Assembly: GCA_964396865.1 (NCBI GenBank) | Contig: CAYNGE010000001.1 | Location: forward strand, 1-29,420 | DNA: 29,420 bases | From: an uncultured Planctomycetales bacterium | GTDB taxonomy: Bacteria; Omnitrophota; Gorgyraeia; Zapsychrales; Fredricksoniimonadaceae | Reading direction: 5' to 3' | Shown: in pieces, positions 232-27,200 of the stretch | Position numbering within the stretch: position 1 is the first letter of the stretch | How the letters are laid out: every line of letters begins with the position of its first letter | Made by a program: the position numbers and the translations under genes | Notes under the pieces: model-generated | The model's input: the letters and a program-made list of their open reading frames with translations, nothing else | Told to the model about the DNA's origin: nothing | Databases searched by the model: none

Positions 232-3200
232 AAACTCGGCATTCTCCATTGTCAATGGCGCATTGGGATGACGGATATTGTAATAAAGATGTGCGGCCGC
301 ATTTGATAAAAACGCGGCTGCAACAGATAAAATAACGACAATCAAATTCCCGATAAGCCCCGGAACCCCAATAAACCAAGGAAGAGTCAATAATGCTATC
401 TTCGCTGTAACCCCGCCGATCCCTAAACCCATCAGGGTTGCCAACTTCATATGACGCCAACCGGTCGTCATCTCGTCTCTTTTATTGGAATTCTCAGGAA
501 AATGCGAAGCTATATAATCACGCCGCAAGGATGCTTTTACCTCATACCACGGCGCAAAGTATAATTGGATCTGCCTGTTTGTCGCTTTCCACATTCCCAG
601 GCTTATCCAACTAAAGAATTTTCGTCCGGGTCCATAAGTCGTCCAAAGAGTCAGCCCCGCAACGGGTTGCGCGGCAAGCTGCATAGTTTCAATGACCTTG
701 CAGAAATAAAATGGTTTTTCAATGACCGCGCAGATGCCGCGCTTTTCATCGCGGATGTCGCCCTCCTCATTCAGGGCAAGTTCCGTAAGCTGTGGGAAAT
801 TCATAAACAAGGCAACTTCCTCAATGTCAACGCCGGCATCTCGCAAATTTTCCAATTCGCTGCGGACCAAAGCCATATGGCTAGGAAGGATCTTAGGATA
901 ATATTCATGAAAAAGCTCTTCAACGGCTTCCGGCAATAACAATCCTTCTGCGTCATAGCATTTCAACAAAGGATTTCCAAGGCCTTGTCTCTTTATGCCG
1001 GGGACATTTTCCAATAAAAAGAGCCTAAATTCCGCAATCGCCTGCTCCCAGTTTCCCTCCAGCGCATGCCTCCTGGCTCTGCCTAAGTTGCGAACGCTCC
1101 ATGGAAGACCGTTATTATCCGAGAATTTCCTAAAAATATTCATTTCAATGGCCGAGCTAAAATCATGTTCATCTCCTCCGCCGAAATCAGCTGCATTCTC
1201 TAGACAGAGACACCCCATCCATTTCTTGGCCTCGCAGGACATATGGTAGCAAGCACCGACATATTTCATAATTGCAGCGATCGCCTTCTGGTCGGTTCCG
1301 GCTTGAAGCGTTTCATGGACCCGCAGGAATGTTTCGTCAAGCATTTCATCTGACCGGCCAAAAAGAACAATCAGGCCATGAAGATCGCCCAAATCGTTCA
1401 CAGATAAACCGATTTTCTTCAACACCGCAGACTGCACGATCCTTTTTAATAGACCGCGAATCTGCTCATGTGGATTTATACTTTTAGAACTAAAGAGATC
1501 TGGACGTTCTTTAAGCAATTTATACCCACTCTCCTCCCACAATAAAATCCAAAGCTCATAGTACTCTGCCGGCCCCATGTTGACGCCCCATTGAGCGCTG
1601 TCAGGATTAAAAAGAAGGAACTTGGCTTTTTCACTAAGCGCAGGCCATCCTTCACTTTTCACTTTGCCCAAATGAGCAAGGGCCGTTTCATAGCCGGCCA
1701 AAAGTTCACGAGCGCGAGACATTCGGCCGGTTGCCGGTGAACGGAGCTTGGCCTCATCGCTTAAGATGATAAATTGTGCCCGCTTATTTTTCGCTTGGAC
1801 CGCCTTGATCGCCTCATCAACAATGTCCTTTTTAATGTCCTGATCAAAAGTAATAAGAAGTTTGGGCGTAATGCGATAAACATTCAAATACCGTTTAAGC
1901 GAAAACAAAGTCGTCATACACACAAAATTAAACCTGTCCCCTAACTCTCCTCTTATGCGCGCTGCTAAATCTTCGGCTTCGTCTATGGGCTGGGTGAGGA
2001 TAAAGACTGTCTCTTTTGCCGGATCAATTTCCGGATAATCATGATAAAGCTGACGTAACCGGGCAAGTTCAGCTTCTTTCTTAGAGGGTTGTTTGCTGGT
2101 CACCAGCCTATTGGCCGCATCAAATTCGGCAAGCTGCTTTTCGCGTAATTTCGTAATTTGCTCAAAAAATTCATAAAAACTATACGGCTTTTGTAGGATC
2201 GCGACCCTCTGGGCATCAGAACCAAACATTTCCTGCAACACATGTCTATACTCTGGCACCTCAAAACCGGTGCTGGCATACAAGATCGGGATCGTCTTTA
2301 ATCCATCTCTATACTCAAGAGTTTTGTCGCTAGAAGGAATGCCCAGATCAAAAATGGCAACATCAAACTTATTGCGCGCCATTACCGCCAAAGCCTCATC
2401 AGCATCAGCGACAATATCAAAATGGTATTGTGAAACAGAGCCGAAATGTATCCGTACGGATTGTTGCAAGCTATCACGTATGGAGTCGTTATCTTCGAGC
2501 CAAAGGATAGAAAGCCGGGCCGGCGGAGTCCGTGATACGCCGGATTGCAGGCGCGCCGTTTCGTGTGCCTTCACTGCTTCATCATATGCAGTAAGCTGTG
2601 CTTGGCGGGCCTCTTTAACCACTGAAGAAATTACATCTAACAAATCGCTTTTACAAAGCACCTCGATTTCTTCCAACGGAACTCCATAAAGCGCTTGAAG
2701 CTCAGCTCCCCCACCAAATGCAACAATGCCCTCCTTGTCCAACGCGGAAATAGTGATCATCCTACCAAGTTTATTGATATCCCATTCTTTACGTATAGTT
2801 GAATAAACCACCGAGCGGCTAACAATGACAGGACACGGCAATAGAAAATCAATAAACGACAAATCAAAAGTTTTTGTTTGAATTAGCCCTCTAACTTGCG
2901 CCCAACCTCGAGCGTATGTAAACTCATATTGTGAATCACTTGCAAAGGAGTCATCTAATTCATCTTTAATTGCTTTTGATATATCCTCTTCATCTTCGAC
3001 TATCAGCACTCTCAATTTTTCTGGTATTTGCGGCCCAGGAACAAGAACGGTCGCGCTACTGGACTGCCGGCGCGCCGCCTCGTATGCCTTTATCGCCTCA
3101 TCATAGGCCGCAAGCTGTGTTTGGCGAGCCTCACTCACTGAGGAAACAACTAAAGAAGCTGTATCTACGATGCCGGTTTCTATGGTCATGCGCCCTAACG

Positions 3201-6200
3201 TTTGACTGTCAATAAAATTCCCTAAATACCTTATGACTTCTTCCTCAGAGCTTGGGGCGCCGGTAACAGCAATAATATTACTAACATCGCTCAACTTCTT
3301 AGCGAATGCCTCTTTACCCTTCTCTCCTCCCATGCCGATAGTTACATCAAATACAACTAAATCAATGGCATTATCCGATAAAATCTTATTAGCCCCTGAA
3401 CAATTCGACGCGAAATGAAATTTGTATTCTGCGGAGGGGAATACGGCTTTTATCTTATTCTTACAGCAAGCTAATACTTGCCTTTGATCCTCCACGACCA
3501 GCACGCGCAGCTTAGCAGGATGAACTGGGGCTTGCACAACGCCGCTTGATGCGGTGGATGCCGGTTGCTGTACTGATTTTTGCGCTACCCTCTTATCCAG
3601 CCATCGCGCATGCCATTGCTCCACAATTGAAACAACGCGTTCGTTGGTAAAATCCTTTTGGCTGATGACGGTCTCACCAGGAATACAGAAACTCGCATCC
3701 TTCGAGGATCCCTCCGCCAAAAGCGAATGCATGATACATAATGCTTCAGGATTTGCTGAGAAGATATCCGTAGTTACGTCGCTCACTCTTGGGGCATTAG
3801 CTCCTCCACCGACATGAATTAACGCCAAATCAACATCACGGCGATATTGGGTAAGGAGAGCATCAAATTCCTCCCACGTCTCACGCCTCTCAACAACCCA
3901 TCCGGCATGGCGCTTAAGTTCTTCCTCAATTGTTTCATACCATCCGTGATAGTCAAAAATAACCACCCGAAATTCGTCCCTCCGTGCCGCAGGCGCAGGC
4001 TTATCTTTCTGTGCACGACTTTCTTTAAGCTTTTGGTCCATCCCTTTAAGCTCCAGAACTCCATGGAGCCGCTTCATCCATTCGGATTCCCAAGACGCCG
4101 GTACAAGCGGAAAGTTCAATGCTTCCTCCAAAAGTCCAATGAACGGCTGCACATCGGCCAAGTCATTTTCTGTAAATAGCCCTTTCTTCAATCCTCTCTG
4201 AACGGCAGACAAATCATTCAGTTTTCCGGCCAAGACTTTTTGGAAGATGGTCTTCTTGCTCTTGCCTCGCATGTGCTGCAAAACAGTCCACTCCAGCTTC
4301 CTATATAATTCTCCTAGATCTTTTCCTGAAGACTTCTTTGACAAAACGCATTCCTCAAGACGCTTGATCAACAAGGTTGATAACGGACTGCTCATCCATA
4401 TCGTAATCCTCTCATTAAAGGGGCTCTCATCAAGATATAATGACGCGTGCAGGCCGTCGCAAAAATAAGTTATCTCTTTTGTCGCCACCCACACTCCTTC
4501 GAATTCCTTATGACGGCGGAACTCCAGCGCGGAGGATAGCCCTTTGCGCAAAACCGGGCCATTGGCATAGGAAAATTCTTCCTGATTGATGCGGTCATGG
4601 ATCAAGGTGATGTTGTGCGCCGAACGCGAGCCCATATACGGGTCAACCAACACTCTGGCCATGGTTGTTTGATCAAGGACAGCTGAAGCCGCATCGTACT
4701 GGATGCGTATATACGGACGCCCAAATTCATTTTCAAACTTTTTAATCGTCTCTTTCGTCACATTTCTACCAAAGGCCACAACGCTTGCCTTAAATCCTTC
4801 GGGCTCCGTCGCGCCCAGGCCGATCGGCGTCTTGGCAATTTTCTTTTGGGATTGAAGAGTCTTCGACGCAACGACCAAGGGCTTACGGAAATCTCCGATC
4901 ATGGGACGCATCTGAATAATAGAAAAGACCGGGCCGGTAGACGAATGTTGGAGTCCCCACTCAACATCCATAGACACTCCAACCTCGTCTTCCAGCGCGT
5001 TAACAACCAAATTCAACACAGATGCATCTTGGGCGCTAAGCGGCGCAAAAGAGCCATTGATCTTGGAGTAACCGCCTAAAACCTTTTGAATCAAAGCGCG
5101 ATCGTCACGCGCACAATACTCTTTTCGTTTAAGACGAAATGCATAGGGCGTATCAAGGAATAAAGGTTGATACTCCATGGATGGCGCCTTTCCGCCCTCC
5201 GGCTTGGTGAACATATACTCTGCCGCATTCGCAAACATGGACTGCACAGCGTAATTCGTGTCACCAACAACCGCCTCAATTGAAGTATGGCCGGAGAAAT
5301 TTGACATCGCCACTCCTGAGACGTCAAAATCAAGAAATGGCTGGATTAAAATACCAAATCCTTCCTCTTCGCTTAAAATATCCGGCAGGCCCTCGATTTT
5401 CTTTTCTCCCTGGTATTGGCGAATCCAGATAATTTCAATGGCATCCTTAAAGATCGCTTTTACTGCCTGAGCAATGAGGTCCCTGTCGCACGCTCTCTTT
5501 GAGAGGAAAATTCCGGCGAGGTTACGGACAAACGAATCTTCCCAAGTGCCGCTTGAACGGGCAATGGCCCAGCCGGTCAATCCCGCCGCTTTATCTTTTA
5601 AAAAATTGTCCAGCTCATTAGAGAAATTAAAATTACTAATAAGGCGCTGCAATTCACGAAAATCCTGTTGTGTGAAACTACCTTTTGTCAGGGCCTTACG
5701 TATAGTCTCGTTGCCAGAGGTGACTAGTGCAGCATTGTCATGCAGAAAGATCGTCCAGGCCTCGCGGATAGCAACCGTCAACGAGGGCGTGATAGTCCGG
5801 ACATTGGCTCCGAGACGCTTGGCGATAATGGGTATAAGAATTTCCAGAATAATGGTCCACGCGATTTTCCCACCGTAAATCCCGGCAAGATACTCAAAAT
5901 AACGGCGCACGCCAACGGCCTTAAGGGCAAAATATTCGTTTTCGGCATCGGTACGTTGGGGGTAGGCCAAGAGGCTTGCCTCGTGCAGGCGGGCCATTAA
6001 ACATTCAACTTCATTTTCTTTGGATAAAAGCGGACGGTCGATATCGCAGCGTTCACCGCGGACAACGCTATGCAGGTTCGGCATCATCTTCCCGGCAGGC
6101 GGAGCCCGGGTTTCCATAGTGCCCATTTTCTCAAGGGCCGCGATAACCTTCTCATCGCCCGCGATCCTTTTGGCCTGGGCATCAACCTTGTGCAGATAAT

Positions 6201-9200
6201 CCCAATCTTCTGGACCAATGGAAATATTACCGGAAATTTCGTTTTGTATCGACGCTTCGCGTTGTTGAGGGTCCTTGGGCAATCGATCGTTCCTCTTGGC
6301 GCGGTGGGGATCGTTTGCAGCCGGCGGTATGGCGGAAATAGCAACAGAGGACGCTTGCAGAAGCCTGCGCAACTGGATGGGCTGCGGCTCGGCATTCTTT
6401 ACCACAATTTTAGGGCCCGACACAGGAAGAAGCGGTGTAAAGCTTTCCTGACCAGCCCTATTGAGAGCGTATTTAACAACGCCGCGCGCCTGCGTGAAGC
6501 GAAGAACGCCTCCATAATTCATATCCGACTCCAAACGACTGCGCCGTTCCATCGGAAGTGCAAGCGCCCTGCCGAGAAGAAAAGGCGTAAACGGTTTATA
6601 GCACCATCTCATTTTCTTTAGGCTCCGGCTCCCAGCGACAATCCTCTTGGCCAGCGTCTTATCCGGTGCCATGCCCGTGTAACCATGCGCAATCTTGACA
6701 TTCTTCTTACCAAACAGTCTTGTTGCCAACTCATAAGCGTACGCCAGATTTTTAATATACTCCCGACGTCCCAACAGCCTGTACCAGGCGCTCTCCGTTG
6801 TGATATGGAACCGTATGCTCAGTTTTAAATTGTGCTCCATTCTAATCCGGGCGATCATCGTCATCGCCTCCTCGCCGAAAGACCCCTTCAGAAATCCGGA
6901 CGTGCTAAACGAGTCCCCGAATAATACTTCCATCGTAAACCCACGGTCGCGCCAGGCCTCAACAATATGTCCGTAATGTTTGCTGAATAATGGATCATGG
7001 TAATCCTTAAGCGGGTCGGCACCGAACCAGTTAAATGCTAAGACAAAACGATTCTTAAAAGGCTCGCGGGGATCCTCACTGCAAAAGACTGTCATTTCGT
7101 CCATCAGTTCGACGATCCACGGCCACGGCATAGAGCTCGGGCGTATGGAGCATGGACGGCAGCAATAATCGCAATGGGTCGAACATCCTTCCGTTATGTC
7201 AACGTAAGCGTTATACATCGACCCTGCCAAAGACAACGCTTCTTTTGGATCCATGTGCTCGAAATACTTCTCAAACCATGCCGCCTGAGGGTTCTTAAGC
7301 GCGGCAACGAGCCGGGCAATCTCCTGTGCGTCCACCGGCGAGGACAAAGCCACATCGAGCGCCTTAACAAACTCGTGCCCCGCGGCGGATAACGGCGCCG
7401 GATACTTCGCAATAACTGTCCTCTGTTCTCTTAAAAATTCCAAGCCTTCTATCGAAAGCAGCTCCGCATGCTTGCGGCCAATTTTATTTTTATTATTAAT
7501 CTTTAAATATTGAAGAGGAGTCCCTGTCTTAGGTCGCTTGGGCAAATTAGACAATTCTCGTTTTTCTTTCAACACCTCGCGCGCCTCAAACAGTATCCTG
7601 CGAGTCGTTCCTTCGGGTTTTTTAATTATGCGACTAATTTCCAGTGCGGTAAGCCCTTCCAAACAATGCAGGACCAAAACTTGACCATGAAGACCGCCCA
7701 ATTCATCTATCCAATCTAATACCAAATTTAACTCTTCTCTTAACATTAGGTCGTTTGCCAGATCGACCGATTTATCTTGCAAGTCCTCTATTAGGCCTCC
7801 TCCCACAGCATAACGTACCCTATAACTTTTAATAAAATTAAGACTGCGATTTACGGCGATGGGATATATCCACGTATAAAAAGCTGATCCCCCTCGAAAA
7901 TATCTTAACTTTCTCCAAGCAGTAATAAAAGTCTCTTGGACGATGTCTTCGGCATCATGAAAATTCCTCACTATGGAAAAAACGATACTAAAAATCCTGC
8001 CCTTATATTGTTCCATCAGCATTTCAAAAGCCTGTATATCTCCACGTTTGGCGCGTTCGACTAATCCTGCATCTTTAAGACCCTTCCTATTGGTCATAGT
8101 GCGAATGGCAAAGGCTTCGGCAATTCTCGATTGATGATATTGATATTCACGGGTTTGATGGGCGGCGATACGGGCTTGGCGATTCTTTAAATCACTGTTG
8201 TTTGGATATTGCGCATGCAGGGCTGTAATAAACGCACGAACGGATGCCTGTTCACCCTGCGGATGGTCCTGAATAAACGCCTCAAGGAGAGCGGCGTATT
8301 GGTCCGGCCGTACGTTCCAAAAATCAGTCTCCTCATCTTCAGCCGCCTTCATAGCCACCGCAAGCGCGCGCTCATACTTGCCAGCCAGAAGCAACCTCTC
8401 ATACTTCTCCCTCGCCGTCTTGCGCATGGCGGGGGCTGAAGATCCTCCCGTTATCTTTTGCAGATCCTGATTCCTAATTTGTTGAGATTTAAAAGCAGAA
8501 TTTAATCGCCTGGTTGCATGCTTTATTGCCCCGTTTTTTAGTCCTTCCTCTACTGCAGATGTGCCCCAACACAATTCATAGCCGGCATGCCCATCCATCT
8601 GCCTATGAATTTTTGTATGCGCGATCAAACGATAAGCATGATAATAAAACCCAATCACCGTCGCCGTTATAGTTTTGCCCTTATACGTAAATTCAAGTTT
8701 CTCTCCAAAATCTACGTCCAAATATGACAATTTGCTTCGGGGCTCACTTAGGAAAGTCACTCGCCCCTTTAAGATATCCCCTAAATCAACTGTCTGCGGG
8801 GCTTCTTGTGAATCAGCAGGGCAAAGCGGACTATCAATAACCGGCAAAGCAATAGGGATGTATTTCAAAACACTTGACTTTAATGTCAACGCTTCCAATA
8901 TCATCACCCTTTTGATCTTCGGTGTTGGCGCATATTCCTGCCTAGAGACGCTTCCAGGCTCTGCAGATTTTTCGGTCAAACAAAGCCGGGGCTGCGTCTT
9001 GATATAAGCAATATCTCCCACCGATAGTAAAAGAGCTCTTTCTACACTTTGATCGATGCTTATTTTCTCCTTGCGAAGCCTTTCAACAGAATCAGCCATT
9101 ATCGGGATACTTTCTCCACAGCCCCAAAGATCAAGATGATCCATCCATTTTCTCAATAATTCATCAATATCTACCTCCTTGGCCTCAACTGGAACGATGT

Positions 9201-12200
9201 TTAATTCTTTCAGACGGCTCGGGAACAATTTGCTAATATCAATGAATGCCTCGTGGGACCCTTCTTTGTCCTTCGGGTTATGGTCCGGATGCACTTCCTG
9301 AACAAACATTCTGTAAATACTTTTTAATTCCTCTTCCGATTCAGCTGCGTCGATCAGTCTCTTGTATTTTGCTCTTACGCCTCCCCATTCGCCTCTTTCA
9401 TGGCTTTTAATTACCCCCTGTACAGGACATTTCGGATTATCCGCGTAATGCGCGACTGCCGTTGCCAAAATCCCCATCCTGCGGGCGCGACTGACAGGCG
9501 TTTCCATCAGATGGCTGCCCCTTACGGTTTGAATCATGCTAAAAATCTGCAGCCACCGCTTAAACTCCTGATCATAAATCCGGTCATATTTCTCCCCACG
9601 CAACAAAAGCAAAGTTTTATGGAGCTCCTGTACAGGTACCCAACCAAACGGTGTTAAAACCTCATCGTGCCAACCAACCCATTCCTTCGAATCACGACGG
9701 GAACCGTCAGGATTCGTCCTCGCCTCTTCCTCTCCGAGCACTCTGTTCCACATCGAATCTTCATTCAAATCCTGCGGAACAACGGCCAAAAGCTTCTTCA
9801 TCTCGGGAATCTTTTTTTCATTGATCAGGCTACGGAAAATCTTTAATTCAGCCTTATTACACGGTTGATATTTTCTGTACCAATCGCTTAATTCTGCCGC
9901 TTCGTCTACGGGCAAAACGAGAACCGTAACATGCCCACTCATGATATATTCCGGAACATAATGTGGAGAAAAAATATCGACGATAAAATCCTTATCCCCC
10001 ATTTTGACTAGAAGGTAATAATGTACCGCGCTGTCCTTCAACCGCTTGACAATGGCGACCTCCGCTTGCAGCCTCCTCTGAAGCGCCCAACCTAAAAGGA
10101 CATTCATCCAGCAAGAACCCTTTAACGCTTTTATTTTTTCAATACGCTGTGCGTCTTGATACGCCATCCGACAGAGCTGCTGATTTTCACTTGTCTTGCT
10201 ACCTACGGATGTTTTCTCCATCGCCATGGCGAAGAAGATGAAAGGAAGAAAACTGAAGATGTCATGGATAGACGGCAAATGACCAATGATAGACGTAAGA
10301 GGCCCCGCGCGGATGGCATGGGCGATGAAATTTCCAATCAGCAAAGACAACGCTACGGTTGTTATCCCCCATAACACCGGCATAATCGTATAGGCCATCG
10401 GCAAAAGAAAAAGCTGATTAGATAGTCGGGAGCCGCCCGTCTTGACCCTTTGGGCTCTTTTAACTTCCATGACCGCAAACGTCGTATTTTTATGGCGATC
10501 GGCTATATCAAAAATCTTCCAGGAATTCTGTTGATTATGCTGATGGATCCACTTCTGGACTCTTTGGTAATCTCTCTGAGCCTTGTAATAAATGGCCGCC
10601 TCCAGCGAAGAGCTTGTTTCTGATTGTTCAAGCGTTCTGTTTGTCATAAATGAAAAAACTTTTCCATCTTCTCTGCGGCCTGAGCGTCCGTTACGCTGCA
10701 CGGTATCCTTGTCAGATCCGGGGTCCGCATTAATAACCAATCTCACTTCATAATCTAACCCTACCTGACCAATGGAGCTTGAAACCAGCCAGATATATTG
10801 ACCCTCGTTAAACTCTTCCACCACTGTTTCCTGTTCCCTTTGCGTCTGCCGTATGCCGTCCTTCCCCCCTGATTGGCCCACAAGGATCGCCACTTTCTCT
10901 TTACCAACAATTTTTTGCAAAACCTGTTCAAGGTCCAAGATGAAACGCTTATTATTCGCAAATACAATGGCCTTAAAACCTTTTTTGCCCATGTTGTCTT
11001 GCGCAATTTTTGCCAATGCCTCCAATTTAGGATGAAAGACTTTATTTTCAAAGGCCCATTGCGCGATCCTCTCAACACCTGAATCTTTCAAAAATGGCAA
11101 AGTTTTTTTGCGCAATGTGACCAACTTGCCCATTGAAGCCGCCTGTTCTTTTTGCCGGAATTCTTCAATGGCATAATGGACATGCATTGGCCCGTATTTA
11201 ACGAATGTTGTAATGAGATGATTTAAATACACCAGATGGGTATACGCAATTGTGTGTTTCCCCCTGTCCTTAAGGCCCTTAACAAATGCGTCGTAACGGT
11301 CCCTATTCGGCAATAGGGCCGCGTCCTCGGTATCGGGGTATTGCCGTTTAAGGGCAAGCAAACCTCGAGCATACTCAAGCCGAAGTTTCAACTCTAACTT
11401 TTCCATGGAAACAAATCTTATAACTGCTTTGCGCAGATCTTCGGAAGTTTGTTTCTTTGTCTCCTCGCTATTAAGCCAGGCATGGACCTTGGCGGGATTA
11501 AGGATGGTAAGCTGTCCTTTTAAATAATCGATATATCGTCTAAGGTAATCTTGAACAGCCAAGGCATGCTCCCTGTCAGACTGAGACCCGCCTTTTTTTG
11601 GCTTTGTCGGTGCTTGTCGCTTGAGGGACCTTACCTGCTGTAGAATTTCAATCTCCGGGTCCACTTGCAGCAACTTTATTAATATATCAACCGCCGTTTG
11701 CCATTGGGCAGTATCTTCTGAATTGGCCTGATCTGTGATCTGTGCCCTTAAATTCTGATAAAATTCTTCGTCTAAACAACCCGCCCCTTTGGCTCGATCA
11801 TAAAGCTGATCAACAAACGCCAGTAAAAACTTTTCATGTTCTCTATATGAAGTATCTACTTTAATAATTTCGCGCTTATAAATATATGGTTGGATCAATG
11901 GATCATCATCAGCAATGGCCAAGACCCCCTCTTGGGAGATACGAAACAGCTTTATCCAGATCTGAATATCGCTTGGGGTGCCGTCATCAGGCCTATTAGG
12001 AGTATCGGGCGTTGCGGTCAATGCCAATAAATACGGCGGCAACTGCTGAACGGACATGCCCTGGTTAGACGCCTCTTGTTCTTTAAATTTGTGCACTTTT
12101 TCGACCAGTTTTGCCGAACTGCTTTTTTTACGCGCCATATGGGACTCATCAACGATCAAAAATGCTATCTGCTTTAAATAATCATCTTTCATTTGGACAA

Positions 12201-15200
12201 CCAAATCGCTGGTGGCAATGATGATCTTGCTTTCTTTCCAAATTTTTTCTCGCTCTTTACGCGAATGTTCCCTGGCCATAAGAGCAACAGGGACTCCTCC
12301 TGATGCCCCTTTTCTGCCCGGGCCGAGTAACCGGTTGAACAATTTATAATGTTGTCTGACCAATGGATTTGAGGGGGCCACAAACACGATCTTCTTATCA
12401 AAGCTGCTTTGAATATCTCCACGGGTCTGTAAAAGATACGCCGCCATAAGCACCGCAATCCCTGTCTTGCCTAAAGAAGTTTGTAAAAATACCGCTGAAT
12501 TTCTTAGCGTGCTTTGGGCTGCCGCCAACACTTGATACGCCCTAAATTCAAAATAAGCATTCAGCTGCCTGCCTTTTACGGAATCGATCATAAAATGATG
12601 GCCGAGTTCCGGATCCTCGAAATGTTTGATGGCTAACCCTAAATGCTTGATTACGGCTTGAACATTCGGATCGTTTTGCATCTCCGTTTCAAGCTGCCCG
12701 CGCGCTTGTATGACCTTTGCATCCAATGTTCCCTGTTTTATTTTTAATCGTTCCTTTTTAAGCTGATTTTGCATCTTCTTCATCCAGTAAGATTTTTTAG
12801 CTAAGGCCCACGGAAACATTTCTTCTTGGGGGGGCTTATTCTCTGATTGCTGCAATTCTGGTTTTCTCCCTCCCACTAAGTAATGTTCGGGAATATCTGT
12901 TGTATTAGTCAGAATAAAATCAGCTGGAATGGCATCTATATGTTGGGCATTAAAATGATCGGGTTCGTTGCCTTGAGGATAGGCAATGTGGATCAATTGA
13001 TCCTGGCCTAGTTTAAGGATATATTCATCGGCATCCCTTCTCTTATATAGCAGCATCTGCGTACCGAATTGAGCTAACTTGGGCTGTAGTCGTATTAAAG
13101 CCTGTTTTAAGACAAGCAATTTGCCCTGCGCCTTATCCCCATCAAGCCAGCCACAAACAGTTTCAATATCTACATTAACTAACGGGACCACCTCTCTAAT
13201 CAAGCAATTGTCCTTTTTGCCTACCTGGACACTTGGATTGCTTAAAAGGGCTAATCGCTCAAGGAATTTTTTCGGGTTATTATTGAACGGCTCCAATCTC
13301 TTTTTGGTCTCAAGAGATTCTTCCGTGTTCAAAAGATCAAGCCCACGCAAAACAGGATAGCTGGCCATCCCAAACTGATCCCAGCGGCTTAGTTTATTGA
13401 CCATCACCCTCTTCTCGTTAAAATATTTATTAACAGCAACGATAAACCCTTGTGTGTCGAATTTATGAGAATCCGGCAACCCCGCTTGAAATTGTTCTAT
13501 CTCTTTTTCTTTTCTGGCTTGCGTCACATAATATTCGGAAAGTCTTCCAACGGTCTGGTCAAATTCTGTTTGAACCCTTGTCTCAAAATTCGTTCGCTCT
13601 GCTTCAGTTAGCGCTAACTTTTGGGCGATGGCCTGTAACTCCTCAGTCAATTGCTTTGCAACCGAGACTCTCGCAACGACAGTAACATCCCCCGGCTCTT
13701 CTTCTTTCTCCTGAATAGCTTCAATTTCTTTCGCGATCCAATCATTGATTTTAGCTGCCACGTCCTTGAACTGTTGATCAATGGCCCCTTGTCTCGCTTT
13801 GCGCTCCTGCTCAAGAATTAATTGCTTTTCTCTATCGCCCAATCTCAACTGCAGATTCCGTTTCATCGCGTCAAAAACAGAATTTCCTTCACCGGCCGTA
13901 AAGCGCACCGTCTCGGTGGCGGCAACTCTCGACTCATGACATTGATATTCACGATCTTGATGGGCGGCGATACGGGCTTGGCGATTCTTTAAATCTCCGT
14001 TGTCGGGATATTGCGTATGCAGGGCTGTAATAAACGCACGGACGGTTCCCTGTTCGTTCTGGGGATGGTCCTGAATAAACGCCTCAAGAAGAGCAGCATA
14101 TTTCGCCGGGGATAAGTTCCAAAAAGCGTTCTCCTCATCTTCGGCCGCCTTCATAGCCACCGCAAGCGCGCGTTCAAACTTGCCAGCCAGAAGCAGCTTC
14201 TCATACTTTTTCCTCGCCGTCTTGCGCATAGCGGGCGCATCCCTTGATGCTTGCAGAAGCCTGCGCAAATCATCAGATTGCAACTCGCCGCCCTTCACCA
14301 CAATTTCAGACCCCGGCACAGGCAGAAACGGCGTAAAGCTTTCATGGCCAGCCCAATCGAGAGAGTGTTTAACAACGCAGCGCGCCTGCGTGAAACGAAG
14401 GACATCCCAAACTTCCTTCGTCGGTCCCAAACGATTGCGACTTTCCAACGAAAGAGCCAACGCCCTGCCGATAAGGCTGGGCTTGTACGGTTCGTAGCGG
14501 CACTGATCCATCGCCTCCAGATTATCACCGACAATTTCTTCTGCTAGCGCCTTATCCGGCGCCATGCCCGTGTATCCCTGCACGATATAGACATTCTCCT
14601 TACCAAATAGGCTTATCGCCAACTCACAGACATTCGCCAAATGTTTGACATACGTCAAACGGCCTAATTGTCTGTACCAGGCGCTCTCCGCTGTGATATG
14701 AATCCGTATGCTCCGTTTTAAATTGCGTTCCCTGCTAAGCCGGGCGGTCATCGTCATCGCCTCCTCACCGATAGATCCCTTCTCAAAGCCGGACGTGCTA
14801 AACACATCCCCTATTAATGTTTCCATCGCGAACCCATGATCGTGCCAAGCCTCGACGACATGTCCATAATGTTTGTTAAATAATGGATCATGGTAATCCT
14901 TAAGGGGGTCCCCTGCGAACCAACTAAACGCCATGGTAAAACTAGTCTCAACAGGCCCGCTAAGGTCCTCCTTTCTGTAAAAAGCCGCCATTTCGTCCAT
15001 TAGTTCGACGATCCACGGCCACGGCATGGAGCTCGTGCGCATGGAGCACGGGCGGCAGCAATAATCGCAATGGGTCGAACATCCTTCCGTTATGTCGACG
15101 AAGGCCTCATGCTTCATCCAGGCCAAAGATAACGCTTCTTTGGGATCCATGCGCTCGAAATACTTTTCAAACCATGCCGCCTGCGGGTTCTTGAGCGCAG

Positions 15201-18200
15201 TAACGAACGCGGCAATCTCCTGCGAGTCCACCGGTGAGGACAAAACCGCATCGAGCGCCTTGACGAACTCGCGCCCCGCGGCGGATAACGGCGCCGGATA
15301 CTTCGCAAGAATCATCCGCCGTTCCTTCAGGAATTCCAATGCTGCATCCAAACCCCGGGACGACCGATCCTGAAAAGATCTTACGCTTGATCCAATCCGG
15401 AGCGCATTTAATTTGTGAGCCCATGCTCTCCGACATTCTTGCGTATTTACTTGAGCTACCATGTCAAGGGGATTGAACGCAAATACAGGCCCCCCAAGAC
15501 ATTTATAATTGGACCATGATCTCATGGAAAAATACCCAAAAGTCTGCGGATCGTAATTAACGGCATAAAGCATTCTCACATCGTATAAATTAAATAAATA
15601 TAACATCAGCAATGTCCCAATCTGCCTTTTTTGGAAATTGCGATCCACATGGATCATAAATACCATTAAACTCCGCCGTCCCTTATAACGCACAACTTTA
15701 TAATCGATTTGAGCAATCACCGCCTTCGTTTTTTCCTCATTGATCACGATCCTATTCTTAAAAAATAACACCCTCTGACCATTTAAAGAAACCCGTGCTC
15801 CCACTCTATTTGAGATCAAATCCAAGAAGGCCTCTCTTAAATGTTCGGCTTGCCCGTCCTTCTTAATAGCGCACCTTGAGGGACGAATATGGTTCCATAG
15901 CCGATACATAAATATCTTCACATATTTAAAAACCTCGCCGGCAAAATCTACTATTAATCCGGCAAGAATACCACCAGCGTGACCAAAATTGCCTATCGGA
16001 ATAAACAATCCTAACAAAATCATCCAGACAAAATTAGTCCACAACAATTTTTGGCCTTTCAATTCTATATAAGGATAAGGGATGACCATAAATTTCTCAT
16101 AAGGAAAATATCGGGAAAAAGCTGCCATCAAGGCAAAGATCCCTGCTGAAGAGCCCACACAGCTCATATTACTGTATGTGAATAAAAGCCTGTTCCCTGC
16201 TTGGGAAGAAGCGGCTATCATGACCGGCAAAGTCCCTTCTGCTATACCTCCCAAAACAATGCCTAAAAAGAAAATCTTTAAGAATGCTCCCCGTCCTTTT
16301 TTCTTCTCAATGTCTTTACCAAAGACGTAAATGACCGCCCCGTTGACAAACAAATGAAATAACGACCCATGAAGAAATCCGTAAGTAAACAACGTCCAAA
16401 GATGTCCTCTTATTGAGTTATCCAGAGAAAGCCCAAACCAAGAAATCATGGGAGGGCCAATGATTAATTGTGCGAGATATACTCCTAAGATGGTAATCAT
16501 CACGGCATTGACACCAGGCCGCCATTGACCCGACGAACGCTTTTGCTCTTTGACTTCCTTCCAGAAGAAATAGCTAATAAGCATCGTAATCATTGCCCCT
16601 TGTGTATACGGCGCGACCGAATAAAACATATTATGATTGATAAAAAACAGAGCTAATTGAAACAGTAAAACTAGCGATACTCCCAAACAGACGGCCAGTC
16701 TCGGGATTGCGCCTTCAGGGATATCCTTGGATGAGCAAACCTCTTTGGTAATTGCTAAAATAGCATCAATCTTTCTTTTAATGAACTTTCCCCAACCTAG
16801 TTGATAGGCAATGGCGACACCAATAATGGCCAATCCCAACACAACGACAAAAGGCGACTGTGTCAATGATCCAAAGGACATCATGACCGTTCCAAAGGCC
16901 ATTTGAACTCCCGAATATCTTGCGCTTGAACCAATCGGCATGGCGGGAGCCGTATCTGAAAAATCTTTTATTTTTTGTAGTGGAATATGCGCCGCAATAA
17001 TGTGCCCGCCCAACGCTAATCCTTCCTCATATATATCATTACGCCAACCCAATTCTATAGACGGTTTGATGCGCCAATAATCAAGTTGTTCAAAAAGGTT
17101 ACTGATCCCGAAATTGTGCCCTCCGACATTGGTTGCTGATTTTGGAGCTTTAGGCCCTCTCCAAGGATGATGATCAGCATTAAACCATTTTCGTTTAGTT
17201 AGATGTTCTGGCAACGGGTGTTTTCCCTCTCCCCATATTTCAAAACGTAGGCCAGGGCAAGGCCTATCATGAACAAAAATTCGAATGACGGGCGAGTACC
17301 CGTCTCTGGCCTCATGCTGAATGATATTTTCCATAATAAGGCTCAACACTAATAACAAAGATTGGTCGGGATCTTTAACAATATCTTTGATATCAAACCC
17401 TTCTTTCGTTGCTGCAGAAATAATGATATTAAACAATTCCATATCCAAAAATCCCCTATTAGCATTAGCTCCTTCAACAAAGGTCTCCCCTCTTAAGGTG
17501 TACCTGCTAAGCACGATAAAAGGGACTTGGTTATTCCATACGGCTGATCGTTGTCTTAAAAATGCTTCATTAAAACTATACGGCTTCGGAAAGACCATCT
17601 TCCCGACAGCCATGCCGAGAACGAATAAAGGAAGGGCGCCAAAAATATCAACTAACATTTCCGGCCCTGTACGGATAAAGTTTGCGACGAGTTCATGAGC
17701 GCTGATAAGAAATGTCTGCACGCCGGGCCAATAATGGCCAAGCACCGTAATGGCAAACCCGCAGAACGCGACAGATGCCGCATCCTGAGAATCATTCCTG
17801 GCAGCTTTCGCAAGCGCCGGCATTTGCGTTGCATGATCTATGCTCGCTGCCGACGGATTGACCTCTGCGCGAAGCCGGGCATCAGGATGCTGTTTAAGAA
17901 AAGCCAGCGCTTGTTGCGCTGATCCCATCTCATCGTCATCCAGCGCCACTTTGCTAAAGATCCTCTCCCGCACGCACGCAAAAAAGAACCCAATAGAGAT
18001 CTCATCGGACCGGACTTCCCAAAGAATAGTACTTTTACGGGCCAGCCCAACCACCCGATGCATCAACGCCAAACCTATGCCGCTATGAGTATCGGCACCA
18101 CGATAGATACGTAACGCCACTTCCGCCTCTCTTTGATTCCCTTCCGCTACGCGGGGATTGAAATACATCTCCCCGATGGCCTGCTGTTGACGGGCAACAA

Positions 18201-24200: not shown

Positions 24201-27200
24201 GAGTAGCGTTATAGGGATTTTTTAAGACCTCCCGCGCCTTAAGTACCAGTGCTTCAATTTCTGCCGCAGTATAGGGGCCGTATGTTTTTATGAGCTCCAG
24301 CCTGCTCTGATAATTCTTTGTCTGATCTGGAAACTCTTCTTCCAAATACTCGGCCGCCGGGTCCCTCCGGGCTAACAGGGCCAATGCGTCAATGGCCGCT
24401 ATGCGCACCGCCGGAGTTTGATTCTCCAGTCCCCGTCCGGAATCCTCTGAGTTTCCAGTTTGATGCCTGTATTTGGCAATTGTCGCCGCCACGACAACCG
24501 AGCCCAAAAGTCCCACCACAGGCCCCACGGTGTAGATGTTCATTAAAGATATTGCTGCCAGCCCAATCCCCCACTCCCCTGCCAAGGCAATGGTAGGAAA
24601 CAATATAAGACCTAAACCTATCATTAAGGTGAGCATAATCCCTCTGCCCTTAGTAAAGATACGGCCTCTTTTGACTTGAGCCTGTCTCTCTATATCTTGG
24701 GCCCTTTGATTATTTATTTGGGCATGCTTATGCTCTCCTAATGCCTCATAAATTCGAGCACGCATACGGTATAATTGGACATTAACTGACTTTTTCTCAA
24801 CACGATCCAATTGTTCAATGTGATTTAAAAGTATTAAAGAATTCTTAAGAAGGCTTTCATAATTCTTTGACGCTTTGTAACCGATCGTGTGCTCAACTAA
24901 ATCTAGAATGATCTGCTCATAGCCAAACAAGTCTGGTTTGATTGCAAACATCTGTGCCATAGCTTCATTGGCTCTACCAGAATCAAAAAGAGCCAATATA
25001 TGTGCTTTGAGACATATGCCTTTGTAGGGCTTTATGCCTTTCCTATATATAAGGATCGTCATAATGACGCCAAATAACAGTGCCGCAAAAACGACAAATA
25101 AAACAACAACTTTACTGTTAATCCCCATCGTCAATATTGTCGGTGTGAATACGCCCCCGCCAATGCCCCGCTCTCCTGCCTGATCGAACAATGGGAAGCT
25201 GTCCCCTTTAACTTTCCCATGGACATTTAGATTGCCCAAAAGAGCTAACTGTTCAAGGAATTTTTTCGGGTTATTATTTAACGGCTCCAATCTCTTTTTG
25301 GCCTCAAGAGATTCTTTTGTCTTTAAAAGATCAAGCCCGCACAAAACAGGCCGGCTGACCATCCCAAACTGCCCCCAACGGCTTAGTTTATTGACCATCG
25401 TTCTCTGCTCATTAAAATATTTATTAACGGTGACGATAAACCCTTGTGTGTCAAATTTATGAAGATCCGGCAACCCTGCTTGGAATTGTTCTATCTCTTT
25501 TTCTTTTCTGGCGCGTGTCACATAATATTCGGAAAGTCTTCTAATGGTCTGGTCAAATTCTACTTGAACCATTGTCTCAAAATTCCTTCGCTCTGCCTCA
25601 GTTAGTGCTAACCTTTGAGCGGTGACCTCTAGCTCTTCAGCCAATCGCTTTGCAACCGGGACTCTTGCAACAACAGTGGCATCCCCCGGCTCTTCTTCTT
25701 TCTCCTGAATAATTTCAATTTCTTTCGCGAGCCAATCATTTATTTTAGCCGACACGACCTTAAATTGTTGATCAATGGACCCTTGTCTTGCTTTGCGCTC
25801 CTGTTCAAGATTTAATTGCTTTTTTCTATCATCCAATCTCAACTGCAGATTCCGTACCATCGCTCCCAAAAAAGGGTTTTCTTCATTGGCCGTCAACTCC
25901 TCCATCGCGGCGGCGGCAACTCTCGATTCATGATATTTACGATTGCGGTCTTGATGGGCGGTGATACGGGCTTGGAGATTCTTTAAATCTCCGTTGTTGG
26001 GATATCGCGCATGCAGGGTTGTGATAAATTCACGAACGGACTCCTGTTCGTCCTTCGGATGGTCCTGAATAAACGCCTCAAGAAGAGCGGCGTATTTCGT
26101 CGGAGATGCATTCCAAAAATCAGTCTCCTCATCCACGGCCGCCTTCAGAGCAACGGCGAGTGCACGATCATTCTCGCAAGCCAAAATCATCCTCTCATGC
26201 CTCTTCCTAGCCATCTTGAGCATTCCAGGAGGCGCCAAAGGCGTCTGATCTAGCCCGTTTGGCGCTGTTTGATACAATAGAATTTCTTGGCGCAATTTTT
26301 CTTCTAATTGCTCAATTGCCCTTTCATGGCCGGATAGGCCTACTAACCATTCGATAAGAATGTTATATTCATCTTTTGCCAAAGATATGTTCAAGAAAAT
26401 ATAGATCACGTACCACAAGTCATCTATATGGGCCATGTCCGTTGTGTACCGCTGTTGATCGAAATATTTATCAATGACATTGCTTGTCACGCACTGGAGG
26501 CATGTCTGAATTTTGGGGAGATCGAATGCCGGGACCTTCTTTAATCTTCCTAAAGCGCTTGGATTTTTGATCGATATCTTCACTGCATAAACGATCTGCT
26601 GGAAATTTCTAATGTGCCCGTAAAGACCTTGCACGCCTAACTCCTTGGTTAAGTCAATGGGAGATGAGGGTTCGCCTTTATAAATTGTAGCCCCCTGAGA
26701 CAGAGCATGGATCTCTTTAATAGATGCAAGGAGTCCCGCCAGTTCGAACTTGCGGACAGACGCCTGCGGATTTTCCCCAGTACTTGGCCTTTGTTCTTCA
26801 ATGTCAGGATAGAGGCTGCCCCATCTTCTATTTCCCGTCCATGGCTTGGAGAGTTTGACTACTATTAAGTTATACCTCCACCCGGATCTAAAATTCCTAG
26901 GATTTAAGGCCGTAGTAACCTTCTTCATGTCTCTGAAACAAACAATCACTGTGTCCTCGCATCGATGTTTTATCACATAACTTATTGCAGGTATTTTCAG
27001 TACGGCTTCGTTGATCTCCCGCATTTTCTCTACTACTCTCTTCGGGTCATTTATCCTGCTCTTAAGATACGCTCGAAAGGCCCATACAGCCGCGTACACA
27101 ACGGCAGCGAGTGCAAGGATGGCAATAACAGGCCCGACCGGCCCGCCCATAAACGCAAACGCTAAAGCGGATCCTCCCAAAAGATTACCCCCGCCATGGA

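Follow-up and report, generated by a model that had tools for sequence, protein, structure and literature searches.

The 29,420-nucleotide (nt) stretch of DNA analysed here (contig CAYNGE010000001.1, assembly GCA_964396865.1), hereafter the window, is read on the minus strand as one frame of 9806 codons that contains no stop and is open at both ends; the longest open stretch in any of the other frames is at most 197 codons. Between nt 667 and 5913 of the minus strand this frame encodes a dikinase-receiver module, in which an ATP-grasp domain of the pyruvate phosphate dikinase (PPDK) type is followed by a small domain with an invariant histidine, a helical spacer and a tandem array of receiver folds. 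An original prediction, made from the DNA sequence, had delimited the segment at nt 670-5910 (amino acids (aa) 7837-9583) and had proposed that a repurposed dikinase core may act there as an unconventional histidine kinase for receivers in cis. Since the window is one uninterrupted frame, the module belongs to a giant protein of many domains, in which it is flanked by hydrophobic helices at about aa 6344-6400 and aa 9659-9700. The module is real and conserved, and it is apparently undescribed.

ATP-grasp domain of the module

The module begins with a PPDK_N-type ATP-grasp domain (PF01326) at 4894..5901 (aa 7840-8175; all features described below are likewise on the minus strand), which is matched by Pfam with an E-value of 1.6e-10 and 41.3 bits at a gathering cut-off of 27. 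The motifs GGK, RSS..ED, DVEW and QMRP, on which the original prediction was built, are confirmed. They supply K7851 of GGK (nt 5866-5868), R7954 of RSS (nt 5557-5559) with E7960/D7961, D8151 (nt 4966-4968) and E8153 (nt 4960-4962) in DVEW, and Q8169 and R8171 in QMRP (nt 4906-4914). In a 45-member alignment of the family described below, K7851, R7954, D8151, E8153, Q8169 and R8171 each reach a conservation of at least 95%. The DVEW of the module aligns with DIEW of rifampin phosphotransferase (RPH), and D-x-E and Q-x-R are counted, with the Lys of GGK and the Arg of RSS, among the phosphate- and Mg-binding residues of dikinases such as PPDK. ATP-site roles have been assigned to Lys22 (also in PPDK), Arg117 and the Mg-binding Glu297 of RPH (PMC4844700), the equivalents of which are conserved in the module family.

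An AlphaFold2 (AF2) model of aa 7836-8625 (model 1, generated from a 41-row alignment) shows a predicted local distance difference test score (pLDDT) above 90 across the ATP-grasp and His domains and of 64-92 in the spacer. The best Foldseek matches of model 1 are HpeI (E 7e-12), RPH (2e-11) and phosphoenolpyruvate (PEP) synthase (PEPS, 3e-11), with E-values of the top hits ranging up to 3e-10, and the ATP-grasp domain superposes on the isolated ATP domain of RPH with a template modelling (TM) score of 0.67. As modelled, the domain is a dikinase-type fold with intact catalytic residues. A search of the PDB with the core as a single sequence returned no match. A possible transmembrane helix at aa 7844-7870 was considered and rejected, the AF2 model placing confident helices of the N-terminal subdomain of the ATP-grasp there.

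The pyruvate-binding TIM barrel that had been found missing after the core is absent on a larger scale as well: Pfam detects PEP-utilizers_C (PF02896) nowhere in the 9806-aa frame. Similarly, no HisKA (DHp), HATPase_c or HPt domain was found in the window by Pfam.

The histidine-bearing domain

Directly C-terminal to the ATP-grasp, as in PEPS and PPDK, lies a swivel-like domain of 140 aa (4429..4851, aa 8190-8330) with invariant H8268 and Y8284. H8268 is located in the motif GSRSAHN at nt 4615-4617, in agreement with the histidine of SRSAH noted earlier at 4615, and is kept in all 45 family members and in distant stand-alone cores. In the AF2 model (pLDDT >90) the domain is of beta/alpha type, and H8268 sits at the start of a helix, within its first turns, after a strand and a Gly loop. 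The domain is a candidate His-carrier because it adjoins the ATP-grasp, has an invariant histidine and shows a matching order of secondary structure elements.

Its kinship with the swivel domains of known dikinases is a separate matter. The motif reads G-S-R-S-A-H-N-I-T-L-I-H in the window and GSRQAHNINLI in the family consensus, and agrees only at the Gly and His positions with the signature of PF00391 around its histidine, G-[GA]-x-[TN]-x-H-[STA]-[STAV]-.... The region after the ATP-grasp has no Pfam match to PEP-utilizers (PF00391) up to an E-value of 10, nor is this family among those listed by Pfam for 27 full-length members. A PDB profile search with the His domain gave no dikinase or enzyme I match, and a search for bridging sequences with the His-domain alignment found nothing even at an E-value of 10, known relatives being missed too. 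In the structural comparison, PEP synthase 2OLS aligns with model 1 over 540 columns, as against 350-390 for ATP-grasp-only matches (Foldseek), which suggests that the His domain, as modelled, superposes on the swivel domain, and PPDK 5JVJ ranks sixth among the matches of a second AF2 model (model 2, see below). The structural evidence is no more than suggestive, and the label of swivel, or of PF00391 member, is not established for this domain. The identity of H8268 as a swivel His, as originally assigned, finds no support from any sequence profile (Pfam, hhalign or PDB profile).

Helical spacer and the aspartate-less receiver R0

The His domain is followed by a spacer (3985..4428, aa 8331-8478) that is all-helical in AF2 (pLDDT 61-94) and has no Pfam match. 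It carries the motif EAL-x-FPL-x-P-x-x-WES, which is invariant in the three closest sequences. The length of the spacer varies in the family: P0020, P0022 and P0042 have a short one or none, and their first receiver begins 105-122 aa after the histidine. A required small-molecule acceptor domain is unlikely to vary in this manner, and a role of the spacer as an obligatory acceptor domain was rejected, given that some members have only a short spacer or none at all. An HPt-like role was also rejected, as a conserved histidine is absent in the spacer. The concern that the segment at 4480-3972 might prove to be a small-molecule acceptor, which would speak against a phosphorelay, is not borne out by a helical, variable segment with no family match.

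Next to the spacer lies R0 (3583..3975, aa 8482-8612), a receiver fold with the (beta-alpha)5 topology in AF2. R0 is poor in model 1 (pLDDT <50), where the whole-protein alignment is weak, and was re-modelled with a trimmed alignment (model 2, aa 8187-8612), giving a mean pLDDT of 87 with blocks of R0 at 57-96. Foldseek superposes R0 on receiver domains with TM scores of 0.65-0.77 and root-mean-square deviations (rmsd) of 3.1-3.8 A. Response_reg is not detected in R0 by Pfam, and a PDB profile search gave weak CheY matches (E 0.1-0.8). His8535 (nt 3814-3816) is situated near the end of beta3, at the site of the usual acceptor Asp, and is invariant in the three closest sequences. Since it occupies the acceptor position, R0 is an aspartate-less receiver. 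Such receivers have been catalogued as a group (ALR; PMC4395418), and R0, and probably the terminal domain of the array, likewise do not have the canonical acceptor set. In contrast to the ALR classes, R0 has a histidine at the acceptor site which is invariant in the closest R0-bearing relatives, and we did not find such a class described.

A second histidine is present in the sequence D8489-Y-H8491 (nt 3946-3954) after beta1 of R0. Two histidines recur in R0-type receivers, one in [DE]xH after beta1 and the other at the end of beta3, and this sequence pattern may reflect the binding of a metal or a site of histidine phosphorylation. Additional R0-type copies are found within the receiver arrays of the relatives P0005, P0010, P0013 and P0014.

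The [DE]-x-H after beta1, seen in the window and many relatives, also raises the question whether spacer and R0 together form a cobalamin-binding-like sensor (cap and Rossmann domain) in place of a linker and a pseudo-receiver, a reading that concerns these parts only. The top Foldseek matches of model 2 are in fact two-domain B12 proteins (CarH-like, MttC, AerR and MetH, E 2e-4, a level that the receiver matches of R0 also reach approximately), and Pfam gives a weak B12-binding match in 2 of 30 members. However, the B12 matches superpose with TM scores of 0.33-0.39 and an rmsd of ~18 A, compared to 0.65-0.77 and 3-4 A for receivers, and the Pfam E-values are 0.08 or worse. The B12-binding signature is DxHxxG..SxL..GG; here D-x-H alone is present and the rest is absent, and [DE]xH itself is absent in the closest relatives P0001-P0004. 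We therefore consider a cobalamin sensor very improbable.

The receiver array

Six receiver-like domains had been counted originally. Receivers do follow the core, but there are five receiver or receiver-like domains, what had been read as the fifth and sixth being the two halves of one terminal domain split by an insert. The array consists of R0, with His in place of Asp, of R1-R3, in which the Asp is present and of which R3 is fully canonical, and of a terminal non-canonical receiver-like domain. The whole segment scores 47.9-48.8 bits with Response_reg (PF00072) at a cut-off of 30.2, whereas R1, R2 and R3 individually remain below it; NCBIfam response-regulator models match all three with E-values of 1e-7 to 1e-3.

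R1 (3145..3510, aa 8637-8758; Pfam E 1.4e-5, 25.6 bits; NCBIfam E 1e-7) contains E8643-D8644, the acceptor D8691 and T8719, while the conserved Lys is not evident from reading the sequence. R2 (2644..3018, aa 8801-8925; Pfam E 0.0024, 18.5 bits; NCBIfam at query residues 170-234) contains E8808-D8809, the acceptor D8857, S8891 and K8923. R3 (2143..2517, aa 8968-9092; Pfam E 2.4e-4, 21.7 bits; NCBIfam at query residues 339-420) has the full canonical set of E8975-D8976, the acceptor D9024, T9050 and K9077-P, and is the closest window match of the single receiver of the relative P0001. The three are tandem duplicates of 28-34% identity, with R2 and R1 at 28%.

The terminal domain was delineated by eye from an alignment with 19 relatives. 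Its N-terminal part, corresponding to beta1-beta4 (1735..2013, aa 9136-9228), has no Pfam match and does not have the acidic pair; it shows ITFD9192QD where the relatives have ITD, and contains S9220. An insert of 331 aa (742..1734, aa 9229-9559), also with no Pfam match, separates beta4 from beta5, and P0015 and P0025, alone among the relatives, have a homologous insert at this point. The C-terminal part (667..741, aa 9560-9584) comprises beta5, GICAVIEK9568PFYF, and a helix, and its motif EKPF[YH]F closes the terminal domain in 20 family members. By eye, the pattern of the relatives, TIFV..PDIVITD..NPxAxFIxTSEEAA..EKPF[YH]F, fits beta1, beta3, beta4 and beta5. To judge from these motifs, the terminal domain is probably a receiver fold that does not have the canonical acceptor set.

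A family of relatives in Omnitrophota

A word-index search identified two homologues with 38-42% identity, both from metagenome-assembled genomes (MAGs) of Candidatus Omnitrophota. In the three-way alignment, GSxxAHN, the spacer motif, the R0 histidine and a receiver with D..VFD are invariant. P0002 consists of a signal-like segment followed by the module, and its gene lies amid ordinary housekeeping genes. The presence of the module at the start of stand-alone genes in P0002 and P0015 shows that it is a unit.

When 1.84 billion representatives were searched exhaustively with HMMER, a profile of the module without its canonical receivers gave 376 matches at E<1e-3 and 46 clusters at E<1e-30. 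The strong matches are mostly 900-3700 aa in length (a few reach ~5000 aa). In addition to a module close to the N-terminus, they show extended tandem arrays of receivers, a terminal receiver-like domain and, in many cases, a conserved C-terminal domain described below. The weaker matches are ordinary PEP synthase-, PPDK- or RPH-like proteins aligned over the ATP-grasp only. Every named relative, together with two genome loci, belongs to Candidatus Omnitrophota, and a scan of genome contigs with the module profile recovered two short Omnitrophota contigs only. Among 27 members analysed with Pfam, PPDK_N is present in all 27, Response_reg in 23 (best E 4e-58) and HATPase_c in 2; PEP-utilizers_C is not among the families listed for them.

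Receivers, ranging in number from 1 to 12, are located C-terminal to the His domain in 36 of the 45 members and N-terminal to it in none. The nine members in which no receivers follow are cut by contig ends or fall in a distant subgroup. Core and array are therefore linked in these 36 homologues, always in the order core to receivers, and the suspicion that their linkage might be peculiar to the window does not hold. Between the histidine and the first receiver lie 105 to 397 aa, so that some members have no room for a separate acceptor domain. With an iteratively built hidden Markov model of the receivers, 145 receivers could be counted in the family, of which 141 retain the acceptor Asp, 139 the Ser/Thr and 118 the beta1 Asp. 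The conservation of these three positions indicates that the receivers are under selection for phosphorylation chemistry.

This conservation also bears on the idea that the module is a non-functional relic, that is, a set of eroded domains in a fast-evolving giant gene. Recent internal duplications and the many divergent domains below Pfam cut-offs in the giant open reading frame (ORF) would fit such a relic, as would the lack of canonical receiver residues in R0 and the terminal domain. Against this, 29.4 kb are free of stop codons, the catalytic residues are invariant among relatives that are only 20-40% identical, and the AF2 models are confident. We give the relic hardly any credence.

Other features of the relatives were observed in passing. 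A C-terminal domain of ~200 aa (ERFKIEE..WxGYA..TILPY..LN..ME), with no Pfam match, is present in P0003, P0005-P0010, P0013, P0020, P0023, P0025 and P0027; in the window, hydrophobic helices are found downstream of the module instead. The C-terminal residues are -AA in 17 of 62 family proteins, as compared to 2 of 88 ordinary PEP synthase-like matches, and this ending may be a sorting or degradation tag. The ORF upstream of P0001 (L002 1-440) ends in ..YGGKAARL and is then closed by a stop. As GGK is an ATP-grasp motif, this relative is either interrupted by a stop or frameshift or affected by an assembly error.

Comparison with known systems

The module shares its PPDK_N ATP-grasp and phosphate-binding residues with rifampin phosphotransferase (RPH-Lm; PDB 5HV1, 5FBS), PEP synthase and PPDK. 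RPH is its best PDB sequence match, and RPH, HpeI and PEPS are its best structural matches. In PEPS and PPDK a small His-bearing domain comes right after the ATP-grasp, as it does in the module. However, the third, substrate domain of these enzymes is missing in the module, which has neither a TIM barrel nor a rifampin (RIF)-binding domain and carries receivers instead, and its His domain does not match PF00391 or the canonical swivel profiles. HpeI, the top Foldseek match of the module ATP-grasp (PDB 9GOJ), belongs to the two-component dikinase HpeHI of Rhodococcus. HpeHI illustrates that a dikinase may have its ATP-grasp and its His-carrier on distinct units and use a substrate other than pyruvate (PMC12167813). 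HpeHI differs from the module in phosphorylating an aromatic small molecule and in the absence of receivers.

In its overall plan the module resembles hybrid histidine kinases and His-Asp phosphorelays, where an ATP-using, His-bearing core is likewise followed by in-cis receivers with the Asp/Asp/Ser-Thr/Lys set. In contrast to these, the module has no HisKA/DHp, HATPase_c or HPt domain, its arrays contain up to 12 receivers, and the chemistry to be expected of it is the formation of AMP and Pi with transfer of a beta-phosphate, not gamma-phosphate transfer. A precedent for a His-carrier of the superfamily that passes phosphate to a protein residue is provided by enzyme I of the phosphotransferase system, which donates to HPr (PMC4844700). 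By analogy, R0 with its histidine at the active-site position could have an HPr-like intermediate role. Enzyme I is charged by PEP at its TIM barrel, whereas the module would be charged by the ATP-grasp, and no HPr, EIIA or EIIB folds were found.

Receiver (REC) and PPDK-family domains are also combined in one protein in the 'Bacteroides-like' REC+PPDK regulators (PMC5847659). In these, which we compared by their catalogue entry, the dikinase is treated as the output of an upstream receiver, whereas in the module a core with no TIM barrel precedes 1-12 downstream receivers. The window ORF is further similar to the 'Archaeovorin'-type giants of Omnitrophota in being very long, with several hydrophobic helices and a divergent mosaic of enzyme domains. 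A study of Omnitrophota giants (bioRxiv 10.1101/2023.11.21.568195) names PPDK_N and CheY-like receivers as frequent domains of these proteins; it counts domains and proposes neither a core-receiver module nor phosphotransfer. Full-text literature searches combining receiver, phosphohistidine, dikinase and ATP-grasp terms gave no description of a dikinase-receiver relay, and a 2026 Omnitrophota preprint makes no mention of the module. The architecture had been regarded as undescribed at the outset; this apparently remains so for the module, while co-occurrence of REC and PPDK is already catalogued (PMC5847659).

Possible in-cis phosphotransfer

The order and linkage of the domains, their identities with the exception of the swivel, the conserved catalytic residues and the lack of a TIM barrel and a histidine-kinase core are plain from the sequences. 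Taken together, they lead us to favour, tentatively, a reading in which the segment is a self-contained phosphotransfer module, membrane-tethered within a giant Omnitrophota-type protein, that would pass phosphate in cis from ATP to His and on to Asp. The ATP-grasp would bind ATP and phosphorylate H8268 in the neighbouring small domain. If PEP synthase and rifampin phosphotransferase are a guide, the phosphate transferred would be the beta-phosphate, with release of AMP and Pi. The phospho-His domain, having no pyruvate- or drug-binding partner, would then donate to D8691, D8857 and D9024, possibly via, or gated by, the His-bearing R0. In this scheme the dikinase core would stand in place of the DHp/CA of a hybrid histidine kinase, and the array would be the phosphorylated output or a relay. 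Phosphorylation of the histidine, the identity of the phosphate and the His-to-Asp transfer are what we infer here from architecture and residue conservation, and the mechanism is plausible on these grounds. It is the best reading of an intact ATP-grasp with one invariant histidine next door, the absence of known acceptor domains, an order like that of hybrid kinases, conserved receiver residues and the rarity of in-cis histidine kinases.

To our knowledge, receivers are charged in cells by the phospho-His of histidine kinases or HPt domains or by small acyl phosphates. A conserved family that has, at the place of the kinase core, an ATP-grasp of PPDK type together with an invariant-His domain would depart from this. 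It is possible, and we offer it with due reserve, that in Omnitrophota a dikinase ATP-grasp with a novel His-carrier replaces DHp/CA and charges tandem receivers with a beta-phosphate, possibly via R0, independently of histidine kinases. If the transfer takes place, it would amount to a second, evolutionarily independent kinase class in His-Asp signalling, with AMP-forming energetics, and would give a first mechanistic handle on a recurrent module of the enigmatic Omnitrophota giant proteins.

Several observations weigh against in-cis phosphotransfer. With respect to the proposed carrier, 30 segments covering the His domain, spacer and R0 gave no Pfam match to PEP-utilizers up to an E-value of 5 (nor any to Response_reg), and hhalign of the family His-domain profile with nine canonical swivel domains, taken from ordinary PEP synthase- and RPH-like matches, gave a probability of 0.3% in both local and forced global mode. 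With respect to linkage, the core served as the query by which the family was assembled, so that the linkage has been seen from the side of the core only; when the R1-R3 array was used in turn to look for arrays without the core, nothing was returned at E<=0.001. In the distant subfamily of P0047, P0051 and P0052, the protein ends after the His domain. P0063 and P0066 (L006 8001-9644 and L008 8001-9824) are stand-alone proteins of 547-607 aa comprising an ATP-grasp and a His domain, with GS[RK]TAHG as their motif and -AA at their ends. Their neighbours are genes for A-type ATP synthase, PriL primase and form III RuBisCO, a context which suggests archaea, and no receiver gene is present in the neighbourhood of either. 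The existence of such receiver-less two-domain cores implies that the core has some receiver-independent activity. In addition, the catalogue of REC+PPDK fusions treats them as response regulators whose output is an enzyme (PMC5847659), so that control would run the other way.

The last two points lead to a serious rival, if a somewhat less likely one, in which the dikinase is regulated by the receivers: the core would phosphorylate a small molecule or protein in trans, and the array would take its phosphate from separate, conventional histidine kinases and, as a regulatory input, switch or scaffold the enzyme. Apart from the 'Bacteroides-like' fusions and the activity that stand-alone cores would have without a fused acceptor, it is favoured by the listing of PPDK among effector domains enriched with aspartate-less receivers (PMC4395418), and by the use of small molecules by the characterised relatives reviewed other than PEP synthase and PPDK (RPH, HpeHI and HapC). 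However, with as many as 12 receivers, placed without exception C-terminal to the core, the module is unlike the usual response-regulator designs; a conserved substrate-binding domain is absent and the spacer is variable; and histidine-kinase domains are absent in the window, with HATPase_c in only 2 of 27 members of the family. Even if the receivers are regulators, the module would represent an undescribed dikinase subfamily without any known acceptor domain.

A further point against in-cis phosphotransfer comes from the N-termini of the stand-alone relatives. In 17 of 23 (e.g. P0002, P0005, P0006, P0010, P0015, P0016, P0031 and P0034) the N-terminus is positively charged, then hydrophobic, and has an AxA-like end, resembling a Sec signal as judged by a hydropathy heuristic only. 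If these relatives are exported, the use of ATP by a receiver-rich protein is puzzling. Another reading is an exported or prey-directed effector at work outside the cytoplasm of the producer, for example in a prey cell, and acting either as an ATP-consuming futile cycle, from ATP to His to a labile acyl-phosphate on many receivers and finally Pi, or as a decoy sink for the histidine kinases of prey. Besides these N-termini, the long tandem arrays and the many relatives that end in the conserved C-terminal domain and -AA are in line with this. A role in predation has been proposed for Omnitrophota giant proteins, for most of which an extracellular location is predicted (bioRxiv 10.1101/2023.11.21.568195). 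Nevertheless, the authors of that study themselves deem the topology predictions unreliable, the signal peptides stem from the heuristic, and the window module shares its inter-helix segment with ECF (extracytoplasmic function) sigma-like, DnaJ-like and CxxxCxxC modules, of types that are normally cytoplasmic. An exported effector is accordingly improbable.

In-cis phosphotransfer thus remains the reading that we prefer. The original proposal of a repurposed dikinase acting as a histidine kinase has gained from the linkage, the conserved residues and the scarcity of HATPase_c (2 of 27 members), and has lost ground on the swivel identity, the receiver-less cores and the opposite direction of control in REC+PPDK proteins.

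Other domains of the giant protein

The remainder of the frame appears in Pfam as a mosaic of domains, including two weak methyltransferase matches, and contains ~15 hydrophobic segments. A rhomboid protease domain is present at ~15943-16407 (aa 4338-4492; Pfam E 5e-18), and Pfam further identifies a DEAD and Helicase_C pair at ~10672-12507 (aa 5638-6249); no SecA_DEAD domain was seen in the 9806-aa frame. Closer to the module are a DnaJ-like stretch at ~9229-9348 (aa 6691-6730), below the Pfam cut-off, and an ECF-type sigma factor with Sigma70_r2 (E 4e-16) and r4 at ~7564-8016 (aa 7134-7285), which is located ~550 aa upstream of the module.

Two kinds of repeated elements were also observed. 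A CxxxCxxC module of ~370 aa (CSTHCDYCC), radical-SAM-like and with no Pfam match, occurs in two copies of 57-80% identity at 14236-15339 (aa 4693-5061) and 6340-7443 (aa 7325-7693), the second of which lies ~140 aa upstream of the dikinase module. A helical repeat, starting with ..MRKTARKKYE..ALAVAMKAAEDEE..., was recognised by mutual identity in three copies at aa 1062-1400, 5062-5398 and 6977-7106 (nt ~25219-26235, ~13225-14235 and ~8101-8490), the third of which is partial. The copies are 67-82% identical, which points to recent internal duplication in the giant gene.

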